From NCBI GenBank assembly GCA_041736305.1, contig JBGSTX010000081.1, positions 1 through 30,417 on the forward strand: a stretch of DNA of 30,417 nucleotides, in the 5' to 3' direction. Positions 2,167-28,815 of this stretch are shown in pieces. Each line of letters begins with the position of its first letter. The stretch's first letter is position 1. Made by a program: the position numbers and the translations under genes. This stretch comes from Oligoflexus sp. Its GTDB lineage: Bacteria; Bdellovibrionota_B; Oligoflexia; Oligoflexales; Oligoflexaceae. The notes under the pieces were generated by a model. The model ran no database searches. It was given only the letters and a program-made list of their open reading frames with translations, and was not told the origin of the DNA.

Positions 2167-3546
2167 TTAAGGAACTAGAGGCGGAGCCTGGTGACAGCCC
2201 ATGCAGCTATATTGCGTGTTGAACATAATAGTCGGATAGGCCGGAGCATTAAATGGATCCACGGGAGCCTGGAAGGGTTGGACAAAGGCTGCGGCGTTCG
2301 CAAGGTTACGCTCGAGGATGCCTTTGTAAGGCCAGGCCGCATAGCTCGTGGGCAGGAGCTTCGCGTTTTTGTAGGCGACGATAGCTGCTGGGACTTTGCC
2401 AGCTTTTACGAGGGCGTCACCCATAGCGAGGAAGAAGCCTTCGAAGTTATGCGGGGCCGATGCCGTGTTTCCGCAGTAGCGCTTGGTGCCTGCGAAGCTG
2501 GGATTGGTGGCGATGAAGCTGCTGAAATCGGGATTGTTGCGATCAATGGGTGCGCCCGAGCAAGCTTCCAAGTTTTGGAAGAGCATCTCGAGGCCTTGAT
2601 TGAACTGTAGCGAATCGGGTGCTTGAGCCAGCATTGGATAGGCTATAGTAAAAAGATTGAATTCAGGAAGGCCCTGGATGGCGGCTCCTGATTTGAACAT
2701 ACCGAGACCTTGCAAGGCTTGTTTCTGCTCTGGTGGATTATCAGGCATGACTGCGCCTAAGAGCGAGGTACAGTCGGCATCAAAGCCTTTAAAGAGCATA
2801 TTCTGCGGAGCTAAACGACTAGCTTCGCTAAAGTGTTGAAAGCAGGAACCTGCCAGATCAAATATATTACTTGGTACAGTCTGGAGGCGGTAGCGTTCGG
2901 CAAACTGCCAGATGCTCAGATAACCCATACGGGCTCTGGCAATGGGAGCGTCGGGACGGGCTTGCATGATGCGACCAAAGCCGGCGGTATAGACGCCGAT
3001 CGAATCAAAAGCACCGGCGCGAAATGAGGCGAGGAACTGCTGGTCGAGGAAAGCTTCCTCGCTACAGACGTAGCTGCTCGGTTGGTGAGCCCCTATCATA
3101 GGTTTCTTAGGAACTACAAAGTCACCTGGATCATCGAAGCAGGAGGGCAAATTATTAGTCGTGGGCCCACCAGAGATATAGATGGGGGCATCGTTACCGC
3201 AACGCAGGATGACGCCATCGCTGACTTCTTCCGATCTACAGCCTTTGCCGTCCTTCAGGACGAAAGGAGCGCCGTCACCGCAGGTAATTTGAAAGCCGTC
3301 AGCGACTTTAGTCGCCGCGCAGCCCTTGCCTGCGGTACCATCGGTACCGTTCTTACCACTAGAGCCCGTGGGACCGGCATCGCCTTTTTTGCCATCTAGT
3401 CCTGGTTCACCGGGCTTACCGGGATCGCCTTTTGCCACAAGGTCGCCGCTAGCTGCGGCTGGCGAGCTGCTTTTCTTTTCGCTCTTTGATTCCAGACATC
3501 CCACGAGTAGGATGGCGCTCGTAAAAATTGCGATACGTACCGACAT
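2167..3546 (-). CDS. Lipoprotein with collagen-like Gly-X-Y segment, helical domain and C-terminal CxxCH heme-c motif
   Basis: Lipobox LLVG-C17. Twelve GXY triplets (GDP...GKG). Two GKGC..DG...CG..AP repeats. CMGCH ends seven residues before the C-terminus. RBS gaggag upstream. Confidence 0.85.
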   Translation of the reverse strand: MSVRIAIFTSAILLVGCLESKSEKKSSSPAAASGDLVAKGDPGKPGEPGLDGKKGDAGPTGSSGKNGTDGTAGKGCAATKVADGFQITCGDGAPFVLKDGKGCRSEEVSDGVILRCGNDAPIYISGGPTTNNLPSCFDDPGDFVVPKKPMIGAHQPSSYVCSEEAFLDQQFLASFRAGAFDSIGVYTAGFGRIMQARPDAPIARARMGYLSIWQFAERYRLQTVPSNIFDLAGSCFQHFSEASRLAPQNMLFKGFDADCTSLLGAVMPDNPPEQKQALQGLGMFKSGAAIQGLPEFNLFTIAYPMLAQAPDSLQFNQGLEMLFQNLEACSGAPIDRNNPDFSSFIATNPSFAGTKRYCGNTASAPHNFEGFFLAMGDALVKAGKVPAAIVAYKNAKLLPTSYAAWPYKGILERNLANAAAFVQPFQAPVDPFNAPAYPTIMFNTQYSCMGCHQAPPLVP

Positions 3547-4127
3547 TTAATTTCTCCTCAGCGTGTTACAAACCCACGGCATGCGCCTGTGCAAGCACAT
3601 TCTGCAATCGCTGTTCCAGATATGACGATAGTGATGTCCAAAGCTTGGACTTCGTCTACGTTCTACTCGCCAAATCCTTGTTCAGCTGGACACCAGACTT
3701 TAGACGGTAAGTATCGGTAAAACATGACGTATTTGCGCAAATTTGTAAGGATGTTTTGCCTCGCGAGCAGAATTGAGAGGTGACTTGGCCTCAAATCTTG
3801 CTCGCAGTAAGAGCTTTCGCATTCGCTCTGCCTTGGAAAGTAGAAAAGTCCTTACGCGAAGACAGAGGAACAGCAGAAAAAGAAGCATTTTTGTCGAGAA
3901 GAATGACAGGCAAATTGATTCTTACTCGCAATCGAGACTCCGCTTGGGAGATTTTGAGTTCAACTAGCCTAGAGGCTCGTCGCGTCTTGCGCTTTCAAAT
4001 GTGGGTCAGAGTCACTGGAGAATTGAGGGGAGACAAAGTCGCTTGCTAATTACAACTATTTTGAATGAAGTGAATCGCAAATGCTCCGTTTAACCGCCTT
4101 GTTTTTTTTCAGGGAATTGACGTTTGT

Positions 4128-4155
4128 TAATTTTTGCCAAAACTAATGCCGATAA
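4128..4155 (+). promoter_or_regulatory. Putative sigma28 (FliA)-type promoter
   Basis: Perfect GCCGATAA at 4148-4155 with TAAT 16 nt upstream, 46 bp before the ATG at 4202. Confidence 0.5.
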
Positions 4156-4201
4156 GCTTTTTAAGTTTGTGAAAATTTTTTATTCATAGAGGAAAAAGCG
4201 T

Positions 4202-4927
4202 ATGAGCCTATTTCGGACGTCTATTCATGTTTTGACTGCTACGTTCTTTAATCTATCTTTGCTCGCTTGCAACAATAATTTGTTTCAAAACAATTCAGGA
4301 GCCGGCAAAAAAAGCGCGAAATCGGCTGCCAAAGCTGAGTCAGGCACTGCTGGCCGAATGCTCGATGACGAGATGCCCATGGCTGACGCCTTGAGTATGC
4401 TGAAAGACGCACCTGTAGGCGATGATGTCTTTGAATGGAACGGATACTCTTTTGCGAATACCAACTGGATCTTCACCGATATCACGGAATCTCAGGACTT
4501 CGTGGATTTGATAGAGGATGTGACGCTAAAAGATTTGCAAGAGTCGTTTGATTCTCTTGCTAAAGAAGACCTGCTCGAATGGTACTCAGAATTTTCGCTC
4601 AATTATCGAGGAGAGTTTTCAGAATCCAATCTGGACGATCAGGAAGATGAAGTTGCCAGCCAGGGCCAATTCTTGCTGTCAGCTCCGAAATCCGTAGTGG
4701 ACACTAAGCCAGTCGGCAACGCTTATGGGGCACCAGCTGCTATCAGGGAAATTCCTTTTCCTGCATTCAATCCTAGGAACGGGGACGAGATCCCAGAGCC
4801 AATTGAACCAGCTGCGCGAGCTCCGCGGCCAGCCAATGTAAGAAATAATGTAAGAGGGGCAGCCGCGGCGGTTTTTCTAAACCCAGAAGACAATGATCTG
4901 GCTGCCATATACGGGAATGTTCAGTAA
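4202..4927 (+). CDS. Hypothetical acidic lipoprotein
   Basis: Lipobox LSLLA-C, RBS agagga, acidic middle region, Pro/Ala/Arg-rich tail. No family recognised. Confidence 0.7.
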   Translation: MSLFRTSIHVLTATFFNLSLLACNNNLFQNNSGAGKKSAKSAAKAESGTAGRMLDDEMPMADALSMLKDAPVGDDVFEWNGYSFANTNWIFTDITESQDFVDLIEDVTLKDLQESFDSLAKEDLLEWYSEFSLNYRGEFSESNLDDQEDEVASQGQFLLSAPKSVVDTKPVGNAYGAPAAIREIPFPAFNPRNGDEIPEPIEPAARAPRPANVRNNVRGAAAAVFLNPEDNDLAAIYGNVQ

Positions 4928-9118: not shown

Positions 9119-9301
9119 ATGAGCTTAGGAGTAAGCATTGCGCTCGCACTGGTAGTCGGAGGCTTTGGCCTTCTCATGGTCTTTATCAAAATAAAGGCTG
9201 ATGCCGCAGCTCGTCAGGAGCGCGAGGACCTCGCACAGCTCTTGAAAGAGCGTCGACCTACTCTGGAGCATACCCTGGAACGCTTCAGCGATAAGAAGTA
9301 G
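9119..9301 (+). CDS. Small single-pass membrane protein
   Basis: 60 aa, N-terminal TM helix then a charged helix, RBS aagagg, fills an intergenic gap. Confidence 0.65.
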   Translation: MSLGVSIALALVVGGFGLLMVFIKIKADAAARQEREDLAQLLKERRPTLEHTLERFSDKK

Positions 9302-9359
9302 TTCGAACGATTATCTTTCTTTTGCAAAGGGCTAGCTGTGCAGTCAGGAGCGAGCCAAA

Positions 9360-10154
9360 CTATTTCAAGTAAGAAATCAAAGTCTCCAGCGCCTGCGGCG
9401 TCTTTCTAAATCGCAAATGCGAAGCAAAAATAGTCTGTCCTGGCAGCTTAGTATCTCGATAAAGCCGCAGATCAGTCTCATTGCTCACCAAATGATCCGG
9501 CAGCACCGCTATCCCCACTCCCTGCTTCACCAATTTCAGCATAGCCGTAATCGAATTAACCTGCACGATTCGCCGCGGAACCTGCCGTGTGATCCGCAGC
9601 AGTAGATCCTCAGGCCCGTAGACTATCCAACGCTGATCGTTCAAACGCTCGAGATCGATCGGCTCTTTACTCACTATAGCTAGTTCCTCGGTGAAGAGCG
9701 GCTGCGAGACGATGAGTTCACTATCTATCGGCTGCGGTAGAAACACGATTTCAAAACGCCCCGCCTCGAGACCCTCCCGCAGCTCTTGCAGGCTGCCCAC
9801 CGTGATGTGAAAATTTTCGTCCTGCGTCTGATAATAGAGTCCTAAGAGACGCTGAAACCAGCTCTCCAGCAGACCATGCAAGATACCCACCCGCAAGAGA
9901 CTGCGCTCGCTGTCGGCGAGCAGAGCCGCACTCTCATTCTGAAAACGCTTGATCGCTTCATAGAGCCGCTGACCCTTGGGTGTGAGAGTCAGGTGCTTCG
10001 ACGAGCGGATGAGGAGCTCGTCATTCACCGACTCTTCGAGTAGCTTGACCTGCCTACTGACCGCCGACTGAGCAATGTTCAACTCTTCTGCTGCTCTGGA
10101 AAAGCTACTTTGCTCAGCCGCCGCCATGAAAGCTTTGAGATAACGAAAATCCAT
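9360..10154 (-). CDS. LysR-family transcriptional regulator
   Basis: HTH signature SFSRAAEELNIAQSAVSRQVKLLEE, LTPKG, and C-terminal LVKQGVGIAVLP. Confidence 0.95.
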   Translation of the reverse strand: MDFRYLKAFMAAAEQSSFSRAAEELNIAQSAVSRQVKLLEESVNDELLIRSSKHLTLTPKGQRLYEAIKRFQNESAALLADSERSLLRVGILHGLLESWFQRLLGLYYQTQDENFHITVGSLQELREGLEAGRFEIVFLPQPIDSELIVSQPLFTEELAIVSKEPIDLERLNDQRWIVYGPEDLLLRITRQVPRRIVQVNSITAMLKLVKQGVGIAVLPDHLVSNETDLRLYRDTKLPGQTIFASHLRFRKTPQALETLISYLK

Positions 10155-10167
10155 GCAGAGGCCTCGT

Positions 10168-10572
10168 CTAAGGTTTGGAACGGCTGCTTCTACTGTCTTC
10201 TATCTGATCCAGACAAACGCCAGGAGCACCCGCATAGGTGTAGCTTTCCAGCAGCTTTTGCGAGCTATCTGTAAAGAACGTGATCTTGCAGCTGTCGGAA
10301 TAGCTATAAATATCAGGTCGCGGATAGGCGTAAACACTGCCCAGGCTGCGGCTGACAAAGGCCGTCTCTTCGTAGCTGAGGGCCTTCTTCCCATTATCCA
10401 TAATGTAAGTACTCCGCGGCGCACCCCATCTCTCGATGAGGCTGTCTGGCGTCTTGCCCATCCACGCCCCGAGTTCGGAGTCTAGCCTTTCCCGGTAGGT
10501 GTGCGTACAAGCCCACAGCCAGAGCGGTGTCATAAGAGCGAAGAATGAGCGTGCATGAAGAACCGAAAGCAT
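10168..10572 (-). CDS. Hypothetical small lipoprotein
   Basis: Hydrophobic N-terminus ending WLWA-C, WMGKTPDSLIERWGAP motif, a further Cys pair, RBS ggagg. Ends 13 bp before the lysR start. Confidence 0.75.
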   Translation of the reverse strand: MLSVLHARSFFALMTPLWLWACTHTYRERLDSELGAWMGKTPDSLIERWGAPRSTYIMDNGKKALSYEETAFVSRSLGSVYAYPRPDIYSYSDSCKITFFTDSSQKLLESYTYAGAPGVCLDQIEDSRSSRSKP

Positions 10573-10783
10573 AAAGGCCTCCGTTTGAAGTTCGAACCTA
10601 TTCTAAGCTTTTCTGGCTGAAAAAAAAGCCAGCTCTCACTGACCTCGTCAAGAATTCGACTTGTCTCGCCTCATTAGCATCCTGGACCGTAATTCTCCAG
10701 CCACAGTCCGTCCCGAGCCGGCGAGGAAAAAGACGGGTTTGGCTGGAGATATAAGGGCCTCAGCTATCTCTCATCATCGGAGA

Positions 10784-10812
10784 TTGACAGAGCGTGGGTG
10801 TCCGGATATAAA
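10784..10812 (+). promoter_or_regulatory. Near-consensus sigma70 promoter for tnpB
   Basis: TTGACA (10784-10789), 17-bp spacer, TATAAA (10807-10812). RBS agagga before ATG 10836. Confidence 0.7.
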
Positions 10813-10835
10813 CCTCGAGGACACCAGAGGAAAGT

Positions 10836-11930
10836 ATGGTCCTAACCTACCGCTACAGGCTTAAAGACGGCAAGCACCGTGAGCAGCTCAAGAAGCTTTC
10901 GGGTCAGGTCAACCTCGTTTGGAATGTCAGCAACGAAGTTATTCGCGAAAACTGGCGCCGATCACGAAAATACACGACAAAAGCAGACCTGAACGCGATA
11001 ACGCGCGGTGCATCAAAAGAGATGGATCTCAATTCTCAGACCATTCAGGCTGTTTCCTATGAGGTTTTACTCAGGACTCAGAAAGCTCAAAAGAGAATCC
11101 GCTTTCGCACAGGCCGAAAGAACCTGGGCTGGGTCCCATTCAACGGCCAAACAGTAAAGTACTGCGGCGATTATATCACCTATAATGGTTTCAAGTTTCG
11201 ACTCTGGGAGCACAGAAAACTTCTGGCTGGGGCAGAGATCAAGACGGGATCTTTTGCCGAAGACTCGCGAGGGCGCTGGTATCTCAATCTCACGATCGAG
11301 GTGACTGATGAAGCCGGTCTGCTAGTTTTGGCTCCTAACCAGGATGTTGGGATCGATCCCGGTACCAAGACAGTCCTGACAACTTCAGCTGGCGAAAAGT
11401 TCACGCGTGAGAATCTAACGCGGGATTATGAGGAAAAACTGGCGAAGGCACAGCGGCACAGGAAAAAACGACAAGCTAGGTCCGTTCACGCAAAGATCAA
11501 GAACAAACGCCAGGATTGGAGCCACAAGGCATCCCATAGCCTTGCAAAACGCTATAACACGATCTATTTTGGTGATGCCGATTCGTCAAAGCTGGCAAAA
11601 ACCAGGATGGCCAAAGGTGTTCTGGACGCTGGCTGGTATCAAATATTTGCCTTTCTCCAATATAAGTCCCTGAGGCGTGGAGGAATCGTGCTCAAAGTGA
11701 GCGAAAAATTCTCGACTGTCACTTGCTCGAACTGCCTCTCGCGATGTGGTCCGAGTGGACTAAGTGGGTTGAGTATAAGAGAGTGGACGTGTCAGAGTTG
11801 TGGAGCGGTTCATGATCGCGACATCAACTCTGCCATCTATATTCTCCGTTCCGGGCGTGGAACGCTGAGGGAGGAATCGACTTCAAATTCTCCCAAGGGA
11901 AGCGCCGACTATAACGCGACGAGCGTTTAG
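10836..11930 (+). CDS. tnpB: RNA-guided endonuclease TnpB
   Basis: N-terminal YRYRL, RuvC-I VGIDPG, HKAS, VLDAGW, Zn ribbon CSNC...CQSCG, RuvC-III HDRDINSA. Confidence 0.95.
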   Translation: MVLTYRYRLKDGKHREQLKKLSGQVNLVWNVSNEVIRENWRRSRKYTTKADLNAITRGASKEMDLNSQTIQAVSYEVLLRTQKAQKRIRFRTGRKNLGWVPFNGQTVKYCGDYITYNGFKFRLWEHRKLLAGAEIKTGSFAEDSRGRWYLNLTIEVTDEAGLLVLAPNQDVGIDPGTKTVLTTSAGEKFTRENLTRDYEEKLAKAQRHRKKRQARSVHAKIKNKRQDWSHKASHSLAKRYNTIYFGDADSSKLAKTRMAKGVLDAGWYQIFAFLQYKSLRRGGIVLKVSEKFSTVTCSNCLSRCGPSGLSGLSIREWTCQSCGAVHDRDINSAIYILRSGRGTLREESTSNSPKGSADYNATSV

Positions 11931-12002: not shown

Positions 12003-12785
12003 GTGGGCAAGCGATTGGCTCTTATCACCGGCGCCTCAGCTGGAATTGGCGCAGAATTGGCTAAGCAAATGGCAGAGCGCGGCTACGATCTCGCTCTTAT
12101 AGCTCGTCGCCGACCGCTACTCGAGGAATTGGCCGAAACGCTGAAGCCGACAGGGGTCCGCGTCGGTATTTATCCCGCTGATGTAGTCAATGCTGACGAT
12201 ATCAAAGCGGCCATTGACGCTGTTGAAAAAGAGATGGGGCCTATTGATATCTGCGTAGCGAACGCCGGTGTCGCTATGGATATGTCTGTCCGCAAGTTTG
12301 ATGTGAAAAAGGCTAGGGAGGTTTACGACGTCAACGTTATCGGTCTCATGCAAACTATTGCGGCCGTACTACCCCATATGATCGAGCGCAGGACCGGAGA
12401 GATCGTCGGTGTTTCGAGCCTAGCTTCCTATTTGACAGCTCCCCGTGTCTATCCCTACTGCGCAAGCAAGGCCGCTGTTTCGGCCCACTTGGAAGGACTC
12501 CGCGTTGAGCTCATGTCCTATGGCATCAAGGTCACTACCGTGTGTCCGGGTTTTATCAAGACTCCGATGACAGATGGAGCGAAGCTAAAAATGCCCTTCA
12601 TCATGGAACTCGATGAAGCCGTTCGTTACATGCTCGACAAGCTCGAAAAAGGGCGCGATCAGGTGATCAACTACCCCTGGAGTCTCTACACGATCATCAG
12701 AGGCCTGAACCTCTTACCGCTTAGTCTGAAACGCCAGCTCTTCGCTAGGGGAACTGCCCGCGGGCCGTCCCATAGCACTCGGTAA
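12003..12785 (+). CDS. SDR-family NAD(P)-dependent oxidoreductase
   Basis: TGASAGIG, ANAG, catalytic S and YCASK, CPGFIKT. GTG start with aaggag RBS. Confidence 0.95.
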   Translation: MGKRLALITGASAGIGAELAKQMAERGYDLALIARRRPLLEELAETLKPTGVRVGIYPADVVNADDIKAAIDAVEKEMGPIDICVANAGVAMDMSVRKFDVKKAREVYDVNVIGLMQTIAAVLPHMIERRTGEIVGVSSLASYLTAPRVYPYCASKAAVSAHLEGLRVELMSYGIKVTTVCPGFIKTPMTDGAKLKMPFIMELDEAVRYMLDKLEKGRDQVINYPWSLYTIIRGLNLLPLSLKRQLFARGTARGPSHSTR

Positions 12786-12854
12786 TTCTACTCTGACGGA
12801 CAAATGGCGATCGAAGCTCGGACAGCTGAGCTTCTCCTCCCTGGATCTGCGATC

Positions 12855-13160
12855 AAATGCTATTGCTGGATTTCCATTTGCCGTAGCTGTTTTCAAGCCA
12901 CTAAAATCTATTTTACTCAATCAGGTACTAACGCCCTTTGAGCTAAGGTATTTTGCCATATCGGCGAGTTTTACTCCGTTTGGACCCACATTGAACGCGC
13001 TTACAATCTCGTCCAAGCGCTGCTGGGGCACAAGCAGATTTTTATGACCGCTGACCTATTTGGCAATTTGAAGGGCGGCGGATGTGGAGTATTTGTCGCC
13101 ATATGGGTTCTAACCGAGAGACTTTTCAACAAACTCCATTAGCCTCTTTACAGCAATTTC
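12855..13160 (-). pseudogene. Eroded fragment of a papain-fold (C39-like) toxin or peptidase domain
   Basis: One frame reads EIAVKRLMEFVEKSLG*NPYGDKYSTSAALQIAK*VSGHKNLLVPQQRLDEIVSAFNVGPNGVKLADMAKYLSSKGVST*LSKIDFSGLKTATANGNPAIAF, with three in-frame stops. Lies on the same strand directly downstream of the immunity gene. Confidence 0.5.
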
Positions 13161-13222
13161 AAAGGTTCACCCTTGGAGAGTGAAGTGGACCCTAACTCGC
13201 GCACAGGGCGAGTTTATCATTT

Positions 13223-13570
13223 TTACAGACCAGCTGTGACTTCTGAGGATGCAACAAGCACAAAAACGACACCGTCATCGGCCTTATAATTTGCAATGTA
13301 TTCAGTAGCCTTTTTCTTTGATCTTACGCAGTAAACCTTAAAATCTTCAAGCGGACCCTCCCGATTTATATACCAGCTGTCATATGTACTTTCGTAGGAC
13401 TTCTTTTCTTTGTTGAATCGCATGACATCGCCGCCCAAAAAAGCAAAGCTATTAGCTGACGGGCTATCCAGAAAGCCTAACACATCTTCTTTTTTCCAGG
13501 CAAAAATACCACTTTCTGCGTTAACAACTAATTTCTTCAAAAGGAAGTCTTCAGGAAAATTCTTGTTCAT
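13223..13570 (-). CDS. Immunity protein, Imm40-like
   Basis: 115 aa, no signal peptide, starts 2 bp after the toxin stop. W..EDV..FL, LGGDV and YDSWY match the GGD/Trp signature of Imm40. Confidence 0.75.
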   Translation of the reverse strand: MNKNFPEDFLLKKLVVNAESGIFAWKKEDVLGFLDSPSANSFAFLGGDVMRFNKEKKSYESTYDSWYINREGPLEDFKVYCVRSKKKATEYIANYKADDGVVFVLVASSEVTAGL

Positions 13571-13572
13571 TT

Positions 13573-15093
13573 CTACCTCATTGGCTCAAATTTACGATGA
13601 TTAATTGAGCCATTGGGCTCAATTATCCATTCAAAATTGCCTTTCCTGCCCAGATACTCGCCTTCCAGTTCAATTCTGGTCCTTTTGATACCATCACCTC
13701 CTGTTATTTCGGTCTTCTTTCCTAGGCCTGCAAAATTGTCAACCTCACCTGGAAATCCATGAAATTGATCTGCTTGCATCTGGGCTCTAACTTTATCGGT
13801 ATACTTTTTATCAGTTAACGGATTGTGCTTGAATCTATCGGCATCCAATTTCCTTAGATCAATGCCGTTATTCTTCGCAGAGTCCAGAATCTTCTCAGCT
13901 CGCTTAGTTATTCCGAGCATTGAAGAAGCTTCTTCAGACCTCCCTACACTCTTCGACAGAATGCGGCTAATTTTACCGGCTTTTCCAGCGACGGCAAGCT
14001 TGCTACCCACCCCAGCGGTAAAAACTCCAAAGACGGCCATACTCCTCTCAAAATTTGTGAGCTTTCGTCCATCTACCAATCCATAACCAGACGTGGCTTC
14101 ATAGATATCCTTCCCCCAGCCAACGACAGGGGTAACAGAGATAGCAATGTCAGCAGCCGCCATACCAAATTCAAAGAGCTGACTACCCTCTCGAAAATTG
14201 CCGGCTCTGAAACTTGCTTCAGATTCGTCAATCGCGTTATCCGAGACAGAAATGAGCTTTTTCCTAGCCGTATAATCTCGATGGGATCGGTATGCTTCGA
14301 CTTTGCTTGCCGCATAGTCGAGATATCTGCGACCCTGATCTATAATGGCTTTCTCGGCGTATATGCTCTCGTTGTTCCGGTCGTTGCCCGGTTCAAAGGC
14401 CTCATCCCTTACTTCCGGCACCTGTGCTAAGATCGAGCGAACCTGCTCATTATAAGTGCTTCTGAATTTTTCGAGATTCTGAATCAGATTGTCGCCATCT
14501 GCTGCTGCCACCGAGTTTTGCAAAGATGCTAAAGATGCTTGGAGAGTCTCGCGATTGGCGTCAATAGATCGCCTATATACTTCGGCCTGCGCCCATAAAT
14601 CCTTTGCTTGCGACAGCAGCTTTTTGGCTTCTCGGGCTTTTCTTCGCCTCTCAGCATTTTTTCCATTTATCTCATCACGCAGCTTGCCCCAGGCCTTCGA
14701 AGTTTCTTTACCCAAAGAAGTAAGGACATCCCCTATTGCAGCGCCACTGGAATCTTCTCCTCCACCAGCAGTTGCCGCTTCGCCTGAGCTGGATCCACTA
14801 GAGGCACTCTCTTCGCAGTCACCGATACAACCAGTTTCAACATCAGAGCCCGATCCAATGGAACTACCCGTAGCGGTACTTGGATTGGCACCTGGACTGC
14901 TACCCGGAGGCTGATCGAAGCATTCCAGCGGCACATTGAACCCTTTGCAAGGGTCGGGACGATCGGTAATCGTAGCTTCAATATAGTAGTTTTCACCTCG
15001 CTTATACTTCGCCGAATCATCCTGATAACGGCTGCCGCATGAAAACAACAAAAAGTTCCACAGTACGAGCAGTGAAAATTTTAACTTATTCAT
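13573..15093 (-). CDS. Polymorphic toxin lipoprotein: lipobox, linker, coiled coil, pre-toxin TG domain, C-terminal toxin domain
   Basis: MNKLKF...LLFS-C lipobox. PT-TG-like TPVVGWGKDIYEATSGYGLVDGRKLTNFER. C-terminal YTDKV..QM...FHGFP..VD...GGDG...FEWIIE..G.INHR.F. ATG at 15093 overlaps the upstream TGA (ATGA). Confidence 0.85.
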   Translation of the reverse strand: MNKLKFSLLVLWNFLLFSCGSRYQDDSAKYKRGENYYIEATITDRPDPCKGFNVPLECFDQPPGSSPGANPSTATGSSIGSGSDVETGCIGDCEESASSGSSSGEAATAGGGEDSSGAAIGDVLTSLGKETSKAWGKLRDEINGKNAERRRKAREAKKLLSQAKDLWAQAEVYRRSIDANRETLQASLASLQNSVAAADGDNLIQNLEKFRSTYNEQVRSILAQVPEVRDEAFEPGNDRNNESIYAEKAIIDQGRRYLDYAASKVEAYRSHRDYTARKKLISVSDNAIDESEASFRAGNFREGSQLFEFGMAAADIAISVTPVVGWGKDIYEATSGYGLVDGRKLTNFERSMAVFGVFTAGVGSKLAVAGKAGKISRILSKSVGRSEEASSMLGITKRAEKILDSAKNNGIDLRKLDADRFKHNPLTDKKYTDKVRAQMQADQFHGFPGEVDNFAGLGKKTEITGGDGIKRTRIELEGEYLGRKGNFEWIIEPNGSINHRKFEPMR

Positions 15094-16373
15094 ATCTTCA
15101 CCATGCAATTTTTGGTGGCGTTCATGTAAAGACCTTCAACGGATCGGTAAGATTCAACTGTTTGAACTCGTTCCGCACGCCGAATATAGTTCTGCAGGCG
15201 GGCAACACACGCCGGCGTGTATTTTTCAGCGATATCAAGGCGACGAGATGCCAACATCTTTTGAGAGCTTAGGAAACCCTTCCAACCCTTGGCTTCGACT
15301 CGATCTACTTTAGACTTAAGATTGTTGATTACAGAATCCAGTCGTTCTAAGTAGGGTTTGCCGACATCAGTATAGGAGCCGCTCACTAGTCTTATTCTAT
15401 CCCTAAAATCTTTTGCCGCGATGAGATCAGCAGCATACAGGCGGCGAGATGATTCGAATTGAAGGTAGGTGGTCTCAAGGTGGTTGCGATCTCGGTCCTC
15501 ACTGATCGAAGTAAACCAGAGCTCAAAAGAAGTTGAAAGCCTATGGACGTGAATTATCGCTGCTATTTTGCCGCTAAGGCCAGATAGGTCGCGTTTCAGA
15601 GAGAGGCGATAAGCATCTTCCAAATCGGAACGTACAGCTGCATAGGCAAATTTTATAAGGTTTTCTCGCTTGCTACGGGCGCTCTGAACCATCGCGTGGA
15701 TCTTATCAACATCGGCGATAAATTCCTGAACTGATGCTTGGACTCGTGCTGCCACGATATTGGTGCGGGCCATTTCACAATCTGGGCCAGCTAGCCAGAG
15801 AGCTTCAGCTTTGGAAGCTTCGAAAGATTTTAGGAGATCGTCCCGCGCTTGTTCTATGAAGGATAGGAGAGCATATTCGCGAGTGCTAAGTGATCGGAGG
15901 AGATCGATGCCTGTGTGATAACCTCGATCAATACTGGCAATTTGGTCCCTAATCTTTTGGCGATCGGCAGAAGGGTTGGGGGAAGAATCTTTTACAAACT
16001 TCTCAATGGCCTGCAGGGACTTGTAATAATCAAGTTCAAGGGCTCGAAAGTTTCGCCACACATTATAGTCGACAGCACCACTATAGGATCTGCCCGCGGC
16101 CAAGGCACTTACCAACAGTGGAGTAGGGCTTTCTTGGGGGCGAAATTTTCGTAAGAGATCTGATGTAGTAGCTGTGAGCAAATTTGCACGGGTTAAGCAC
16201 TGGTCAATTCTTTTTATTTTTGGAATGCATTGGCTTCTGAGGTTTTCCAAGCTTGCTCTGACGATAGCCAGATTGTTGCCGTCGGGCTTTGGGACGATAC
16301 ACTCTTTTAATTCTTGGCCTATGGCAAGGCCCGTATTCAGGAATAAAAGAAAAAAGATGAAAAAAGCACGCAT
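15090..16373 (-). CDS. Sec-secreted, largely alpha-helical hypothetical protein in the toxin operon
   Basis: Signal peptide MRAFFIFFLLFLNTGLAIG, long amphipathic helices, several Cys. Translationally coupled to the toxin gene. Confidence 0.8.
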   Translation of the reverse strand: MRAFFIFFLLFLNTGLAIGQELKECIVPKPDGNNLAIVRASLENLRSQCIPKIKRIDQCLTRANLLTATTSDLLRKFRPQESPTPLLVSALAAGRSYSGAVDYNVWRNFRALELDYYKSLQAIEKFVKDSSPNPSADRQKIRDQIASIDRGYHTGIDLLRSLSTREYALLSFIEQARDDLLKSFEASKAEALWLAGPDCEMARTNIVAARVQASVQEFIADVDKIHAMVQSARSKRENLIKFAYAAVRSDLEDAYRLSLKRDLSGLSGKIAAIIHVHRLSTSFELWFTSISEDRDRNHLETTYLQFESSRRLYAADLIAAKDFRDRIRLVSGSYTDVGKPYLERLDSVINNLKSKVDRVEAKGWKGFLSSQKMLASRRLDIAEKYTPACVARLQNYIRRAERVQTVESYRSVEGLYMNATKNCMVKI

Positions 16374-16407
16374 GCAGGGTTCCTATTCTCGTGAAGATCA
16401 ATTTTAA

Positions 16408-17397
16408 CTATTCAGCGACTCTGGAGATTTCTTCTTTGAGTCTGCTCAGTTTTTCTCTAGCCTTAGGGTTTTGCCTTGCGACCTGATCGTTCAAAAGGAG
16501 CCCAATTTCTTCTTCCTTATTTTGAAACCAACTCAATAAACTATCGTGGGAAATCTTTAGGCTACAGTTCTGCTTAAAGCGTTTGAAACGTCCTTCGGCT
16601 ATATTTGCAGGGTTTTGGAGCGAGGAGAGAGTTGTTCGATTGAAAGCCTCACAATCGAGGCGCTCAAGAGTCACCTTAACTTGTACTTCACTCATATTTA
16701 TATTTTGACAGGAGACCTGCACATCTGACCTTTCATATCCAAAGATCAAGAAAAATTTCTCATTCAAGTCAATGGCGACTTGCTCGTAAAGTGGATCAGC
16801 ACTGTACTTGTCAATCAGGCACGCAAGCGCCTTTTCGTTTCTTAGGCGAGAAAAAAGTTCACCCTGGCGGATTGGTAAAACGCTAGCGTAGGTATCCAGG
16901 CTCGATTTGGTCTCGTAAATATAGGCCTCAACCTGCTCGGGAGTCTTATAGAAACTACAGCTTTTATACTGCGCATTACCAAATTCTGGATGTTGGCATT
17001 CTCGGTAGAGTTCAACGCCATGTTGTGGATGCCTGCAAGCCTGATAAGCAATCACACCAAAATCTGGATGCTCACAAGACTTTGGTTCTTGACCTACACA
17101 TGTGCGGTGTATTCTTCCACCAGGCCCGGTAATAAGTTCGCCATTTCTACCTTTGGGCTGGACCATTTTGCAAGCCGTACCACAGCGATTTGCGTCAGCA
17201 CGTACATTGAATCTTGCTGGAGGACAGACAGGACTCTCTTTACTGAAATAGATATCGGCTCCGCAGATTGGATCGCGCCTGGCTTGATAATTCTCGACTC
17301 CACATAATTGATGCCTTGCGGTCTGTAGTTCGAAGCTCATGGCAGCTTCAGACAAGATGCAAAGAATTATCGACATGATCTGGAAAAAGGTTCTCAT
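16408..17397 (-). CDS. Sec-secreted protein with Cys-rich short repeats and a helical C-terminus; first gene of the toxin operon
   Basis: Signal peptide. ~13-aa repeats CEHPDFGVIAYQA / CRHPQHGVELYRE / CQHPEFGNAQYKS. Start placed at ATG 17397, which has a gaggag RBS. Confidence 0.8.
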   Translation of the reverse strand: MRTFFQIMSIILCILSEAAMSFELQTARHQLCGVENYQARRDPICGADIYFSKESPVCPPARFNVRADANRCGTACKMVQPKGRNGELITGPGGRIHRTCVGQEPKSCEHPDFGVIAYQACRHPQHGVELYRECQHPEFGNAQYKSCSFYKTPEQVEAYIYETKSSLDTYASVLPIRQGELFSRLRNEKALACLIDKYSADPLYEQVAIDLNEKFFLIFGYERSDVQVSCQNINMSEVQVKVTLERLDCEAFNRTTLSSLQNPANIAEGRFKRFKQNCSLKISHDSLLSWFQNKEEEIGLLLNDQVARQNPKAREKLSRLKEEISRVAE

Positions 17398-17843
17398 CGG
17401 ATAGGCTCTCCTCAAGCATCGAATAGAACTTAGAGTATCGTTAAGCGGCGTATACGTTTGAGGAAAGCCTTAGTCAACAAGGATTTGGTCATTTATACGC
17501 GCCTAAGAAAAAATTTACTTTGCGTGTGAGCTGGGGGAGTATGATGTGGACTTGTCTTGCGAAAATAATGCTTAAAAGTCTGCTGCCTTTAACTTATGTT
17601 TCTTTGTGATGCACGGACTGAGATTGCTGTGTTTTCCTTGCAAAGCTATTCCAAATAGTCAGGCCGACGGAATCAGCCCTTTATTTGCAGGCCCGCCAAG
17701 CAAGCTGAGCTTATCGGTTTTTGTGAGAAGGATCGGATTGGGCGTAGGAGAGACCAACCTTCGAGATCCCGATTGGCAGGAGGATCAAGTGTGCGGACAC
17801 CGTGGGCATCAAAATTTTCGCAGCCTGCTAAGGAGACAGGCCT

Positions 17844-18371
17844 TCAATAAAAGGGGCCTAATTCTGTACGACAAGGCTGCTGAGGCAGAACTTGGACATC
17901 GTTACAGGCCAGCTTGACGGAAAAATCCTTGGGATCGTCTCCGTCCTGAAGCCAGGCTATATCGACAAGTTCACCGCTGAAGCAGCCTTTTTTGTCGAAA
18001 GGAGAAACTTTGAGTGCTTTAGGGGGCCAGGGTCGCAGATTAGGACAGACCGATGGGCTTTGCTCGAGGGAAAAAAAAATGCCGCCACCTGCTGCGTTAG
18101 AGACGATGTAGCGACCGTAGGGAAATGCCTCGCTAATAGGCGAAGCTCCGAAGGAATCGTAGGCCGTTTGCTTCCCTAGTTTGCCATCTTTGCAGGCGCC
18201 AGCCTTGAAGGACGTCAGCCGTTTCACCTGCGTCGCCGCATCAGTCTCATAGCCGAGAGTATAGACGGTCGCGGAAGTATCGAGCTGACGGCAAAAAATA
18301 GTTCCGGCCATAGCTTGGGCTTCAAAGAGGAAGAGAGGCAGCAGGACCAGGGCCAAAGGTCGACGTAGCAT
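17844..18371 (-). CDS. Hypothetical exported protein
   Basis: Signal peptide ending AQAMA, six Cys, beta-rich appearance. No family recognised. Confidence 0.7.
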   Translation of the reverse strand: MLRRPLALVLLPLFLFEAQAMAGTIFCRQLDTSATVYTLGYETDAATQVKRLTSFKAGACKDGKLGKQTAYDSFGASPISEAFPYGRYIVSNAAGGGIFFSLEQSPSVCPNLRPWPPKALKVSPFDKKGCFSGELVDIAWLQDGDDPKDFSVKLACNDVQVLPQQPCRTELGPFY

Positions 18372-23307: not shown

Positions 23308-26300
23308 TTACTTTTTATTCTTCAACCACATATGCATGAGACCTAGAAGCTGCTCAGTATCGACAGGTTTCGTAATGTAGTCTGTAGCCCCTGCTGCCAG
23401 GCACTTCTCTCTATCTCCCTTCATGGCTTTGGCGGTCAGCGAAATAATCGGTAGAGTACTAAACTCGCTGATTTTCCTGATGCAGGTGGTGGCTTCGAGA
23501 CCATCCATTTCCGGCATCATCGAGTCCATGAGGACTAAATCGGTATCTGGAATTTCCTGCAATTTTTCAAGAGCAAGCCGGCCATTTTCCGCGTAGTTCA
23601 CCTTCATGCCGTAGGTTTCAAGGAGACAGGTCATCGTATAAATATTACGCATGTCATCGTCGACAATGAGGATTTTTCTGCCCTTGAAATCAACGTTGTC
23701 GGGGAGTCGATAAATCTCAGGACTCGGCTCTTCCTTGGCGACCAAAGTGACCGAAGTATCGGCTCCGGCGTAGGTCTGAGGAATGTAGAGATGGAATACG
23801 CTACCTTTGCCGTAGGTGCTCTCTACTTCAATGACACCCCCTAGCAGACGAGCAATCTCGCGACTGATGGTGAGTCCGAGGCCGGTGCCGCCGTACTTCC
23901 TATTGGTAGTACCATCGGCTTGCTGGAACGCTTCAAAGATAAGCTTCTGCTTGTCTTTCGGAATGCCTATGCCGGTGTCGCGGACTGAAAAGCGCAGGAT
24001 AGGCGAACTCGAACGGACAATCCCGGCCGGTGCGCTGTCTCCGGCCAAAGCCATGCTGAGGGTCACGCGGCCGCGGTTGGTGAACTTAAACGCGTTAGAA
24101 AGCAGATTTTTGAGGATCTGCTGGAGTCGATTGAGGTCGCTAAACATACTTGCCGGCGTGTTCTGCGCGACTTCGATGTTGAAGTTGAGCGACTTGTGTT
24201 CGGCGACTGGGCGGAAGGTCTGCTCGAGCATTTCCTGTACTTCGTAGAGTTCGAAGGAACTGGGATGAATCGGCATCTTCCCAGCCTCCACTTTCGAGAG
24301 ATCGAGAATTTCATTGATCAGAGCAAGGAGGTCGTTGCCTGCGGCATGGATCGTTGCTGCGTATTTGACCTGCTCAAGGCTGAGGTTATTGTCCTTATTG
24401 TCCGATAGCATACGCGAGAGGATCAACAGGCTGTTGAGCGGTGTCCGCAGCTCGTGGGACATGTTGGCGAGGAATTCAGATTTATACTTGGAAATAAGCG
24501 AGAGCTGCTCGGCCTTCTCCTCGAGGGAGAGAGAAGCCAGCTCGACTTCGTGGTTCTTGATCTCGAGCAGCTTGGCCTTCTCTTCCAGTTCGGTGGCCTG
24601 GGCTTCGAGTTCGACGTTCGAACGCTTCAGCTCTTGGAGCAGTTCTTCTGTCCGCATGGACGAGGAGATCATGTTGAGGACGACGCCGATGGAATCCATC
24701 AGCTGATCGAGGAAGTTGAGGTAGTTGAGCGAGAAAGGATGAAAGGACGCGAGCTCGATGACAGCCTTGACCTCGCCCTCAAAGAGGACGGGCATCACTA
24801 CGACGTTCGCCGGGCGGGCTTCGCCCAGGGCCGAGCTGATGTAAACGTAGTCGTTAGGTACGCGGCGCAGCAGGATGCGTTTTTTCTCGAAGGCGCACTG
24901 TCCGACCAAACCCTGCTTGAGCTGATACTTGTTCGACAGATTCCTTCGCTCGTCAAAGGCATAGCTGGCGATGAGGTTCAGTGTCGGTTCGTTGAGGTCT
25001 TGTTCTATCATGAAGAAGGCACCGAGCTGCGCGTCGACCAGCGGGGTCAGCTCGGACATGATCAGCTGGGCTACAGCGGTGATGCTGCGCTGCCCCTGCA
25101 TCATGCTCGAGAACTTGGCCAGGTTGGTTTTGAGCCAGTCTTGCTCCGTGTTTTTCTGCGTAGTGTCCTTAAGATTTGAAATCATCTGGTTGATATTGTC
25201 TTTGAGCGCCGCAACTTCGCCCTGCGCTTCGACCGTAATCGAGCGCGTCAGGTCACCTTTGGTTACAGCCGTGGAAACTTCGGCGATGGCGCGGATCTGT
25301 GAGGTCAGTGCTGACGCAAGCTGGTTCACGTTATCGGTCAAGTCCTTCCAGGTACCCGATGCTCCTGGTACGTTTGCCTGCCCGCCGAGTTTGCCCTCTA
25401 TACCTACCTCGCGTGCAACGCCTGTTACCTGATCGGCAAAAGTCCGGAGCGTATCGGTCATGGAGTTGATCGTTTCGGCGAGGGCCGCTACCTCACCCTT
25501 GGCTTCAAGGACGAACTTCTGACTGAGATCCCCGTTGGCTACCGCCGTCACGACTTTGATAATACCCCGCACCTGCTTGGTGAGGTTGGAGGCCATGAAG
25601 TTTACGTTGTCCGTCAAGTCCTTCCAGGTGCCGGCTACACCGGGCACGTAGGCCTGGGCGCCGAGCTTTCCTTCGATACCTACCTCCCTTGCAACCGTGG
25701 TTACCTGGTCGGCAAAAGTACCGAGCGTATCGATCATGGAATTGATCGTTTCCGCGAGGGCCGCCACCTCGCCTTTGGCCTCGAGGAAGAGTTTGCGATT
25801 GAGATCCCCGTTGGCTACCGCTGTCACGACTTTGATGATACCCCGCACCTGCTTGGTGAGGTTGGAGGCCATGAAGTTTACGTTGTCGGTGAGATCCTTC
25901 CAAACCCCCGAAACTCCTTTCACCTCAGCCTGCCCGCCGAGTTTTCCTTCGGTACCTACTTCTTTAGCAACCCGGGTAACCTCCGCAGCAAAGGAGTTGA
26001 GCTGATCCACCATCTTATTGATTACATCTTTGATCTGGAGAATCTCGCCGCGCACCTCGACCGTAATCTTCTGGGTCAAGTCACCGTTGGCGATCGCGGT
26101 CGCGACCTTGGAAACGTCGCGGAGCTGGACCGTCAGGTTCCCGGCGAGGACGTTCACGTTATCAGTGAGATCCTTCCAAACCCCCGAAACCCCTTTTACA
26201 TCGGCCTGTCCACCGAGTCGTCCTTCGGTACCTACCTCTTTCGCCACCCGCGTTACTTCCGCGGCGAAAGAGTTGAGCTGATCCACCATCGTGTTGATAG

Positions 26301-28815
26301 TGTTTTTAAGCTCGAGGATTTCGCCTCGCGCATCGACCGTAATCGTCTGGGATAAATCGCCTCGCGCCACCGCCGTGGTTACCTTGGCTATGTTTCGGAC
26401 CTGGTTGGTGAGGTTACCGGCGAGTACGTTCACGTTATCGGTCAGGTCTTTCCAAACCCCTGAAACCCCTTTTACATCAGCCTGCCCACCGAGTCGCCCT
26501 TCGGTACCTACCTCTTTCGCCACGCGCGTTACTTCTGCCGCGAAGGATCGGAGCGTATCCACCATGATGTTGATGGTATTCTTGAGCTCAAAAATCTCGC
26601 CCTTGGCATCGACCGTAATCTTCTGCGACAAGTCGCCATTCGCCACAGCCGTCGTAACCTTGGCTATGTTCCTCACCTGAGCCGTGAGGTTCCCGGCAAG
26701 ACCGTTTACATTATCCGTCAAGTCTTTCCAGGTGCCGGAGACCCCCTTCACATCCGCCTGCCCTCCGAGCTTACCCTCGGTTCCTACCTCCTTGGCCACT
26801 CGCGTAACTTCCGCGGCGAAGGAGTTGAGCTGATCCACCATCTTGTTGATCACATCTTTGATCTGGAGAATCTCACCTCGCACTTCAACCGTAATCTTCT
26901 GGGTCAAGTCACCGTTGGCGATCGCCGTCGCGACCTTGGAAACGTCGCGGAGCTGAACGGTCAGGTTTCCGGCGAGGACGTTCACATTATCCGTCAGATC
27001 TTTCCAAACCCCGGAAACGCCCTTAACATCGGCTTGCCCACCGAGTTTTCCTTCGGTACCCACCTCTTTCGCTACCCGCGTAACTTCTGCGGCGAAGGAG
27101 TTGAGCTGATCCACCATCGTGTTGATCGTATTCTTGAGTTCGTAGATTTCGCCCTTAGCATCGACCGTAATCTTCTGCGACAAGTCACCCTTGGCCACGG
27201 CCGTGGTTACCTTGGCGATGTTTCGAACCTGGTTGGTGAGGTTACCCGCCAGGACGTTTACGTTGTCGGTGAGATCTTTCCAGGTACCGGAAACCCCTTT
27301 TACATCAGCCTGCCCACCGAGTTTACCTTCGGTACCTACTTCTTTAGCAACCCGCGTAACCTCGGCAGCGAAGGAGTTGAGCTGATCCACCATTGTATTG
27401 ATCGTATTCTTCAGCTCCCGGATTTCGCCTTTTGCTTCGACCGTAATTTTCTGCGACAAGTCACCCTTGGCCACCGCTGTCGTTACCTTGGCGATGTTTC
27501 GAACCTGGTCAGTGAGGTTGGCTGCGAGACCGTTCACATTATCGGTGAGATCTTTCCAGGTTCCGGACACCCCCTTGACGTCGGCCTGCCCACCGAGTTT
27601 TCCTTCGGTACCTACTTCTTTTGCAACCCGGGTAACCTCGGCCGCGAAGTTTCGGAGCGTGTCCACCATCGTGTTGATCGTGTTTTTAAGCTCGAAGATC
27701 TCACCACGGGCATCGACTGTAATCTTCTGCGACAAGTCGCCGTTGGCGACCGCTGTCGTTACCTTGGCAATATTTCGAACCTGGCCGGTCAGGTTTCCGG
27801 CGAGGACGTTTACGTTATCGGTGAGATCTTTCCAAACCCCAGAAACCCCTTTAACATCAGCCTGTCCACCCAGTCGTCCTTCGGTACCTACCTCTTTCGC
27901 AACGCGCGTAACCTCTGCAGCAAACGAGTTGAGCTGATCCACCATCGTATTGATCGTATTCTTCAGTTCGTAGACTTCTCCGCGTGCATCGACCGTAATC
28001 TTCTGGGACAAATCGCCTTTCGCTACCGCTGTTGTTACCTTGGCAATGTTACGAACTTGGTTGGTGAGGTTACCGGCGAGGACGTTGACGTTATCGGTAA
28101 GGTCGCGCCAAATACCGGAGGCGCCTCGCACATCAGCTTGGCCACCGAGTTTACCTTCGGTACCTACTTCTTTTGCCACCCGCGTAACTTCTGAAGCGAA
28201 AAAGTTGAGCTGATCCACCATCTCATTCACCGTCGTCCCAATCCGAAAAAATTCACCTTGCAGGGGACGGCTGTCGATTTCCAGGGACATCTTCTGCGAA
28301 AGGTCACCCTTCGCCACTGAGGTGATAACCCGCGCGATCTCGTTGGTGGGCTGCACCAACTCGCCGATGAGAGAGTTGACCGAATCAACGCAGGTGGCCC
28401 AGCCGCCGCGCACCGGCCCGATCGAGGCGCGCTCAGTCATGCGCCCTTCTTGGCCAACAATTTTAGCGACTCGGGCAAATTCATTGCTCATCGTTTCGTT
28501 AGCTTCAATGATGTCGTTGAGAACTTCGGCTACTTCGCTTAAGACGCCAAAGCGATCATCAATTTCAAGACGCACAGTAAAATCACCCTGCCGCATAAGC
28601 CGAACGGTCTTGAGCAGACTACGCATCTGCTGCCGTAATTCGGCAGGGTCAACCTCGTTATTTACGCTTTCTCGCGTTAGAACTGACGCGGGAGTGAATT
28701 GCTTTTCGCTGCGTCTCGTTTTGTCGTAATTTTGATGGCGGCGATCTCTAGAGCTCTGCTTCCCAGCCAGTTTTTCTTTAGATGGCATATCGAGATTGCT
28801 GTCTTGGTTGCGCAT
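23308..28815 (-). CDS. Poly-HAMP hybrid histidine kinase (HAMP array-GAF-HisKA-HATPase-REC), related to Nik1/Os-1 and OsaA types
   Basis: About 12 tandem 92-aa units ([21 protein letters not shown]...WKDLTDNVN). H-box [23 protein letters not shown], receiver LMDSMMP. Start placed at ATG 28815 with a ggag RBS. Confidence 0.95.
25160..28600 (-). repeat. 276-bp-period intragenic tandem array encoding poly-HAMP units
   Basis: Near-identical peptide units with third-position divergence. For example, a ~50-bp identical block occurs at 25562 and 25838, 276 bp apart. Confidence 0.9.

Follow-up and report, generated by a model that had tools for sequence, protein, structure and literature searches.

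Based on the analysis of a 30,417-nucleotide stretch of Oligoflexus sp. DNA (contig JBGSTX010000081.1 of assembly GCA_041736305.1, hereafter the window) and of homologous loci in other genomes, we consider it probable that four genes packed on the minus strand within positions 13223-17415 make up a mobile cassette of polymorphic toxin and immunity genes that represents a novel type, in which two exported accessory proteins, A and B, form a delivery complex with the toxin, C, the fourth gene, D, encoding the immunity protein. A and B are a real and undescribed accessory module for Sec-exported polymorphic toxins, for which we propose a role in delivery. No description of the cassette was found in the full-text literature, the supplements of a survey preprint on the PT-TG domain (10.1101/2025.10.01.679605) and of Zhang 2012 being places where its proteins may be listed.

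The four genes are tightly linked, with 34 bp between A and B, an ATGA overlap of the B stop and the C start, and 2 bp between C and D, exactly as a preliminary description of the stretch, made from its letters, had stated. Gene A (16408..17397) encodes an exported accessory protein of 329 residues with a signal peptide when read from the ATG at 17397; its frame is open to a TTG at 17415 (listed open reading frame (ORF) 16408-17415, 335 residues), and because AGGAG precedes the ATG at 17397, this is the likelier start. Gene B (15090..16373) encodes a second exported accessory protein, of 427 residues and predicted to be all-helical, likewise with a signal peptide, and gene C (13573..15093) a lipoprotein polymorphic toxin of 506 residues from MNKL, whose ATG overlaps the stop codon of B. 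Gene D (13223..13570) encodes a cytoplasmic immunity protein of 115 residues. Hydrophobic N-terminal signal sequences are present on A and B and absent from D. The G+C content is 0.43-0.47 across the A-D locus, compared to 0.51-0.53 in the flanks, a difference that speaks for mobility, as does a TnpB gene close by (see below). The start at 12855 given in the preliminary description was set too far out, as it lies 368 bp past the D stop in an interval where no convincing gene was seen, and no orphan tip or immunity cassette was seen in 12786-13222.

The toxin C is built of five consecutive parts, all on the minus strand. Its N-terminus, MNKLKFSLLVLWNFLLFSC followed by GS, forms a lipobox: residues 1-19 (15037..15093) are a predicted signal peptide that ends in the lipobox LFSC and carries no twin arginine. 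Residues 20-124 (14722..15036) form a low-complexity tether rich in G, S, A, D and E with four cysteines (Cys 49, 58, 89 and 93), in which P55 and P63 are nearly invariant in the family alignment. The conserved charged region of residues 125-310 (14164..14721), of coiled-coil-like composition, is specific to this toxin class; it has only sub-threshold Pfam matches, to coiled-coil families, and co-diverges with A and B. It is followed by a PT-TG pre-toxin domain (PF14449) at residues 313-374 (13972..14157), detected over the Pfam cut-off (E 3.6e-10, 40.1 bits vs 23.5), the TG loop of which is flanked by two moderately hydrophobic stretches (Kyte-Doolittle 19-residue maxima of about 1.5 at 306 and 352). 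Residues 376-506 and the stop codon (13573..13968) form the swappable C-terminal module, similarity to the paralogue described below ending at about residue 374-426. After the signal sequence, A, B and C contain 14, 6 and 4 cysteines, respectively, all even numbers, and D contains 1, which fits disulfide-bonded exported proteins and a cytoplasmic D.

Within the C-terminal module, the tip core (about residues 422-504; 13582-13830, minus strand) carries H445, D467-x3-R471, E492 and H499-x2-F502, and H445, D467, R471, E492, H499 and F502 are invariant or nearly so across 41 aligned tip homologues. In Zhang 2012, the Ntox19 signature is given as D, H, DxxxR, E and HxxF, with a predicted two-histidine RNase activity and a BECR (barnase-EndoU-colicin E5/D-RelE) fold, and Imm38 and Imm40 are named as its immunity partners. 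D is a member of Imm40 (PF15569; E 1.3e-8, 35.7 bits vs a cut-off of 25) and bears the GGD motif in FLGGDV. Judged by its residues and the pairing with Imm40, we assign the tip of C as an Ntox19-like predicted RNase of the predicted BECR fold. The preliminary identification of C as a lipobox-bearing PT-TG toxin and of D as a signal-less, GGD-type immunity protein is borne out on both counts.

The tip family is shared with toxins that are delivered in other ways. A search with the C-terminal 134 residues of C retrieved 844 cluster representatives at E <= 0.001 (350 at E <= 1e-10) among 1.84 billion; among the matches listed (150), the tip is always C-terminal, in host proteins of 61-2489 residues. 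Seven sampled homologues carry it behind a two-partner secretion (TPS) domain (1), RHS (1), TcdB_midN with RHS (1), PT-HINT with haemagglutinin repeats (1) and PT-TG (2), with no match in the remaining one. Among the closest relatives, with 63-79% identity in the tip, are lipoproteins of the same build as C.

A second copy of the cassette, A'-B'-C'-I', is present in the same genome on contig C128 (locus L007:5816-10078) in the same gene order, and these are the only two copies of B in the genome. Sequence identity is 70% between A' and A, 65% between B' and B, and 58% between C' and C. The match between C and C' ends at residue 426/506 and is followed by another tip and a different downstream gene of 92 residues, and the DNA likeness of the two loci (65-67%) is limited to A-B and the central part of C, stopping where PT-TG ends. 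The paralogue sits between a primase-like gene (2478-4829), which is accompanied by pseudogene-like fragments of a second copy, and a tRNA-Ile (L007:10578-10654), with ParB/ParA genes (12408-14356) beyond. The arrangement resembles a mobile element that has integrated at a tRNA gene.

Across the phylum, the B family occurs in 26 of 131 genomes with a single protein query and in 33 of 131 with a profile; it is found in 14 of the 21 genomes of the window's own family, in up to four copies per genome. A search for related loci with a narrower A alignment returned 2 loci, and word-index searches for B returned 3 and 5 proteins, with the candidate list saturated at 8000. We compared 30 B loci from Oligoflexia genomes, namely the window, L007, L017-L036 and L047-L054 (28 fetched and 2 of the own genome), 4 of which are truncated at a contig end. 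In each of the 26 that continue past B, the gene right after B encodes a C-like protein of 496-872 residues; 23 of these were recognised by BLAST clustering, the family hidden Markov model or Pfam PT-TG, and those of L047, L048 and L050 by eye only, from a lipobox, a PT-TG-like stretch and a small downstream gene. All of the 30 loci but L033 and L052, 28 in total, have an A homologue, in most cases immediately before B, in 3 loci divergent and in 1 downstream, so the trio is syntenic well beyond the window. No other gene family is common to more than 4 of the first 22 loci. Two copies of the cassette are also present in Oligoflexus tunisiensis Shr3, a cultured type strain of the same genus (L019/L037 and L024).

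The tips of these proteins vary. Pfam detected PT-TG in 16 of 20 C proteins, and the tips over cut-off among the 20 are Col-Pyo_DNase, EndoU_bacteria, Peptidase_C39, CdiA_C, LHH and ADPrib_exo_Tox; a colicin-E3-like 'Cytotoxic' match is sub-threshold in 2, and 12 tips are unnamed. Known immunity families were found over cut-off in 6 of 18 downstream genes (Barstar, Imm35, SUKH, Imm45 in two cases, and ADP-ribosylglycohydrolase), in each case fitting the tip where the tip is named: LHH is followed by SUKH, the two 'Cytotoxic'-like tips by Imm45, and an ADP-ribosyltransferase (ART) tip by ADP-ribosylglycohydrolase, a pairing described in Zhang 2012 as Imm-ARG. With their constant N-terminus, variable tips and matching immunity genes, the homologous loci are a polymorphic toxin system in the sense of Zhang 2012, and the variable C-termini and immunity genes anticipated for related genomes are indeed there. 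The similarity matrices of 19 loci correlate between A and B (r 0.40), B and the N-terminal part of C, C(N) (r 0.45), and A and C(N) (r 0.65), the observed values being reached by 1, 0 and 0 of 2000 permutations, respectively, and the tips show r of -0.06 to -0.12 with A, B or C(N). As the similarities of A, B and C(N) correlate and those of the tips do not, the constant trio is inherited as a unit while the tips are exchanged.

Two further observations concern genes that accompany the cassette in some loci. An additional exported protein family of 225-357 residues occurs with it in 4 of 22 loci (L022:8309-9022, L029:7931-8608, L036:4283-5023 and L033:5402-6475) and could be a further accessory protein; similar-sized secreted genes lie upstream in L024 and L025. 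Just upstream of the cassette in L018 (G074 C49), at 9155-11419 on the minus strand, at least 4 tandem small genes (73-130 residues) share the C-terminal motif ...KYGIKPGCDGKGNC, and two other small ORFs of the array share a lysine/glutamate-rich tail; the array may encode secreted peptide precursors.

The cassette has also spread beyond the Oligoflexia. A tblastn search with B against 72,556 plasmids gave one match, the mobilizable plasmid pNe_1 of Nostoc edaphicum CCNP1411 (NZ_CP054693.1; L045:5868-10023), and no match was found in 50,697 phage records. On pNe_1, an A homologue (E 1.3e-66 with the A profile), a B homologue (2.5e-64), a C-like gene and a gene of 155 residues are consecutive, with an integrase and ParB nearby. 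The C-like protein is annotated as 'polymorphic toxin type 24 domain-containing' and matches the C profile at 1e-10. From the presence of A, B, C and a candidate immunity gene on this plasmid it follows that the cassette crosses phyla and rides mobile DNA.

A and B go with one class of toxin constant region rather than with lipoprotein toxins generally, since two further lipoprotein PT-TG toxins in the window's genome, on contigs C294 (L043:6239-8568) and C56 (L044:5370-9961), have neither A nor B beside them. These toxins, of 684 and 674 residues, share near-identical N-terminal regions that are unlike that of C, and differ in their tips, which are Ribonuclease with Barstar as immunity protein, and an unnamed tip with Imm8, respectively. 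The C56 toxin gene is overlapped (ATGA) by an upstream gene for a secreted coiled-coil protein of 733 residues with a trypsin-like domain, which recalls that of UmbA in the Umb toxins of Streptomyces discussed below.

Turning to the accessory proteins themselves, the N-terminal half of A has a cysteine every 13 residues within CGVExY / FGxxxY units (Cys 32, 45 and 58, and 108, 121, 134 and 147 in the ATG numbering), and its C-terminal half is helical. AlphaFold2 with a family alignment modelled A with a mean predicted local distance difference test (pLDDT) of 83.4, as short beta hairpins at 31-155 and helices at 159-334 (TTG numbering), and B with a pLDDT of 87.8, as an elongated, almost wholly helical protein that includes one helix of 87 residues. 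The preliminary view of two helical partners thus applies to B, and for A only to its C-terminal half, the N-terminal half being predicted as Cys-rich beta hairpins. In an alignment of 22 B proteins, the cysteine columns C59, C199, C389 and C423 are invariant or nearly so. Neither A nor B has a Pfam or NCBIfam match, sequence searches of the PDB gave nothing below E 0.03 for the A, B and tip profiles or the tip alone, and the ESM Atlas gave no usable match for B. The two proteins are not detectably related to each other (hhalign probability 0.9%), nor B to C (5%). The A protein of L020 (L020:4491-6521) bears Ricin_B_lectin and RicinB_lectin_2 domains in a long C-terminal extension; long C-terminal extensions are also present on the A proteins of L028 (3293-5005; no Pfam match) and L034 (9893-11317).

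The proposed complex was modelled by a three-chain prediction with family alignments, covering residues 27-335 of A, 22-427 of B and 125-400 of C. The score was 0.50 (runs 0.37, 0.50 and 0.59), compared to 0.00 for the best of 3 controls, one of which had B replaced; contacts agreed between runs by at least 78%, and the pLDDT of the partner chain, C, was at least 65. In the calibration, which is only approximate because own alignments and three chains were used here, 58 of 80 solved complexes attained the mark, as did 2 of 110 mismatched pairs, and the range at or under 0.60 contains only 7 of the 80 solved complexes and both passing mismatches. The prediction raises the odds of an A-B-C complex a little. 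For the three-component display or translocation device suggested in the preliminary description, it amounts to weak support, and no outer-membrane channel is encoded in the cassette.

Based on these data, we propose that the cassette operates using the following mechanism. C, the weapon, would be exported by Sec, receive a lipid anchor at its lipobox cysteine and, on its long flexible tether, reach the outer membrane or the cell surface; its C-terminal module would be exchanged by recombination. A and B would be exported alongside C and bind its class-specific helical/PT-TG part outside the cytoplasm, the A-B-C assembly then being displayed at the surface or released. In this assembly, B would serve as a helical scaffold and A as a disulfide-stapled rod that contacts the target, the main hint to the latter being the ricin-type lectin domains on the A protein of L020. 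The two hydrophobic stretches around the TG loop might aid passage of the membrane, which is speculation. The Ntox19-like, two-histidine tip would next enter the cytoplasm of the target and cleave RNA, while D would stay in the cytoplasm of the producer and neutralise an incoming or mislocalised tip in kin.

A number of points weigh against this proposal. The verdict of the three-chain prediction is weak support, a pass in its weak zone being 'more often wrong than right' for any guess that was not already a likely one, and the correlation of A, B and C(N) is no proof of contact, because common descent alone could yield it. The predicted models of A and B do not look like any described fold of a delivery protein, chaperone or adhesin: the fold search with B returned generic helical bundles only (Foldseek best E 0.12), its best structural matches being designed or spectrin-like bundles (VIA top hit a designed three-helix bundle, Z 14.0, root-mean-square deviation (rmsd) 4.5 over 196 aligned residues, a level common for helical models), and that with the A model as a whole gave nothing above Z 7.8, in the helical half only. 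In a comparison with the tripartite alpha-pore-forming toxins of the ClyA family, 6mrt_A ranks 5 for B (Z 10.9, rmsd 5.8, 210 aligned), again in the range common for helical models. Fusions of B to C or of A to B were not detected, which counts for little as the candidate list was saturated at 8000. No beta-barrel or channel that could account for the outer-membrane passage of A, B and C is encoded in the cassette. As for the toxin, no Pfam model matches the tip or 41 of its homologues and no solved structure was found by sequence, so that its Ntox19 membership rests on the motif and the Imm40 pairing. Moreover, only 15 of 20 C proteins have a canonical lipobox (Cys after G, A or S), 3 having no lipobox cysteine and 2 an atypical one; the predicted lipoprotein state is hence frequent in the C family, not universal. 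In Nostoc, a signal peptide is present on A and on neither B nor C, whose frames extend upstream by no more than 10 and 5 open codons, and export of B and C by Sec or as lipoproteins is thus not constant across the family. Finally, the window's genome is a metagenome-assembled draft of 392 contigs.

A more far-reaching form of the proposal, which we regard as possible but tentative, is that A, B and C build a self-contained delivery particle or surface spike for diderms that needs general export only, as a functional counterpart of Umb. A would then read the surface of the target, with lectins at its tip in some lineages, C would be a lipid-tethered warhead on the helical scaffold B, and the two hydrophobic PT-TG helices would insert in the target membrane and pass the tip inward. 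Umb of Streptomyces (PMC11062931) has the closest three-protein logic among the systems compared: UmbA, UmbB and UmbC are described there as co-encoded and exported without a specialised secretion machine, the toxin having a long helical stalk and a polymorphic tip, with a helical adaptor and a third subunit that can bear distal lectins. The likeness is one of logic, not of family. UmbC has a twin-arginine translocation signal and ALF repeats (PMC11062931), in place of which C bears a lipobox and PT-TG; a trypsin-like domain is part of UmbA (PMC11062931), whereas no trypsin or repeat family was matched in A, B or C by Pfam; and the host of Umb is monoderm. The match of B to the Umb structure 8w20_A (Foldseek rank 3, E 0.16, probability 0.28, TM 0.18) is not significant.

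Alternatively, though this seems rather unlikely to us, C may be cargo of the SitBAI kind, held in the outer membrane and passed on by membrane fusion or vesicles, with A and B only stabilising or loading it, as SitB does for SitA, and with no autonomous A-B-C delivery complex. SitBAI of Myxococcus, delivered by outer-membrane exchange (PMC5562445), has the closest gene logic: an accessory gene with a type I signal overlaps the gene of a lipoprotein toxin whose N-terminal part is conserved and whose nuclease tip varies, a cytoplasmic immunity gene follows, and several such cassettes are found per genome, on mobile elements. This organisation is matched by the cassette, and the lack of a channel encoded by the cassette itself fits such a route as well. 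The likeness concerns the gene logic. The cassette has two accessory genes instead of one, PT-TG in C, and lineages that comprise the Oligoflexia and one cyanobacterial plasmid; SitB is a predicted beta-barrel (PMC5562445), in contrast to the all-helical model of B; and SitA orthologues are reported in the same paper only from species bearing traAB. In addition, the lectins on the A protein of L020 fit recognition of a foreign surface better than fusion with kin, and the Nostoc C lacks a lipobox.

It is also conceivable, if quite unlikely, that A and B are periplasmic holding or maturation factors, acting as chaperone, in disulfide formation, in processing or as a safeguard, with no role at the target cell. 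Such partners are familiar from type VII secretion systems (T7SS), Lap1 and Lap2 being examples of T7SS toxin partner proteins, and the weak predicted contact of the three chains depends on B. T7SS toxins have small or helical partners that bind the constant helical region prior to export, as with EsaD and its three partners (PMC10653861). LXG/EsaD-type loci resemble the cassette in the order partner, partner, toxin, immunity and in PT-TG placed between a helical region and the tip, the partners being thought to bundle with the helical N-terminal part of the toxin. The cassette differs in that no LXG or WXG domain is present, its partners are large with Sec signals and its host is a diderm with no T7SSb. 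Against a purely periplasmic role, A (329 residues) and B (427 residues) are large, Cys-stapled and conserved over long distances, and ricin-type lectins, as found on one A, would be needless for a periplasmic chaperone. Furthermore, as only the Nostoc A has a signal peptide, A and B would there reside in different compartments under such a reading. That the cassette is aimed at eukaryotes or prey instead of competing bacteria, A being a lectin-type adhesin, is very improbable: the ricin-type lectins on the A of L020, the mention of Oligoflexus in a paper on an alga-preying bacterium (PMC12865303) and the presence of Ntox19 in effectors of amoeba symbionts (Zhang 2012) would suit it, but the tips are usual antibacterial nucleases, and a small signal-less gene adjoins every complete locus, six of these genes belonging to known immunity families, so that the toxins should be able to strike kin.

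The cassette also differs from the remaining systems with swappable tips. MafA/MafB of Neisseria (Zhang 2012) share with the cassette a Sec-exported polymorphic toxin with a lineage-restricted N-terminal domain and an exported partner, encoded upstream, conserved and not polymorphic, which is believed to keep the toxin on the cell surface. In this the cassette fits the class of Sec-dependent toxins with lineage-specific N-terminal domains and conserved exported partners that was drawn from MafA/MafB in Zhang 2012. In Maf, however, it is the partner that is a lipoprotein, next to a soluble toxin, whereas here the toxin is the lipoprotein and has two partners, and MAFB-N (DUF1020) has no match in C at E <= 1. 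By the features compared, the cassette belongs to none of SitBAI, Umb and Maf. Like CdiBAI, it has a swappable C-terminal tip and an immunity gene, the same tip family occurs on a TPS-domain protein (P0109), and the C of one relative has a CdiA_C tip; unlike CdiBAI, C has no TPS domain, haemagglutinin repeats or VENN motif, and no CdiB-type transporter was found in the window. TPS, PAAR, VgrG, LXG, WXG and RHS families have no Pfam match in A-D at E <= 1, nor among 18 neighbouring ORFs of the window, in agreement with the earlier statement that markers of the type V, VI and VII secretion systems and of RHS are absent, and the suggestion that A and B match no known secretion system holds in the searches made here. 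Hcp (PF05638) has 0 matches in the whole genome (92.7% complete), with a positive control in E. coli.

Around the cassette, the window contains commonplace or mobile genes, namely those for a LysR regulator, an IS605-type TnpB, a short-chain dehydrogenase, a Cu/Zn superoxide dismutase, a beta-eliminating lyase, hybrid histidine kinases and an AcrB pump. The TnpB gene, of IS200/IS605 type, is at 10836-11930 on the plus strand, 1.3 kb from the cassette (Cas12f1-like_TNB E 3.6e-19; OrfB_IS605 E 1.6e-5), and a TnpB-like ORF, judged by eye, is also found near an O. tunisiensis cassette (L019:11602-12942). Between 12855 and the D stop, only a G+C-rich hairpin was noted (13194..13214), 9 bp past the D stop and a possible terminator; its T run is on the plus strand only, and it is a consensus match of a kind no more numerous in the region than in shuffles. 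A secreted Cys-rich ORF of 175 residues (17844-18371, minus strand), 428 bp upstream of A and with no Pfam match, was considered as a fifth member of the cassette and rejected; neither the paralogous locus nor the clustering of 22 loci contains it, and it is hence probably not part of the cassette. Elsewhere in the window, a hybrid histidine kinase of 1845 residues (23308-28845, minus strand) has 12 consecutive HAMP stretches followed by GAF, HisKA, HATPase and receiver domains, and an ORF of 459 residues (2167-3546, minus strand) scores slightly below the cut-off for a collagen-like triple-helix repeat (E 3.4e-6).

In conclusion, we here describe a cassette that suggests an undescribed form of toxin delivery between bacteria. 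Polymorphic toxins are known chiefly by their delivery machines, i.e. the type V, VI and VII secretion systems, Rhs, Umb and outer-membrane exchange. The view taken in the preliminary description, that PT-TG precedes toxin tips mostly in LXG/T7SS and RHS toxins of Firmicutes, needs to be widened, as the survey preprint (10.1101/2025.10.01.679605) reports 'PT-TG' and 'PT-TG toxin' architectures widely spread in diderms too, where, according to its authors, the toxins must use several unknown secretion routes. Its main text does not mention lipoproteins, signal peptides or the Oligoflexia; its supplements may list such proteins. The cassette represents a concrete candidate for such a route, with two conserved exported proteins travelling with one toxin class. 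Should A, B and C form a self-contained particle, it would supply one missing delivery route for diderm PT-TG toxins, by means of a module old and mobile enough to be found in both Oligoflexia and Cyanobacteria. As the cassette occurs twice in the cultured O. tunisiensis Shr3, genetics and biochemistry are feasible, and if A sets the target range, as lectins do in Umb, the cassette would also lend itself naturally to research on how toxins exported by Sec locate and invade other bacteria.

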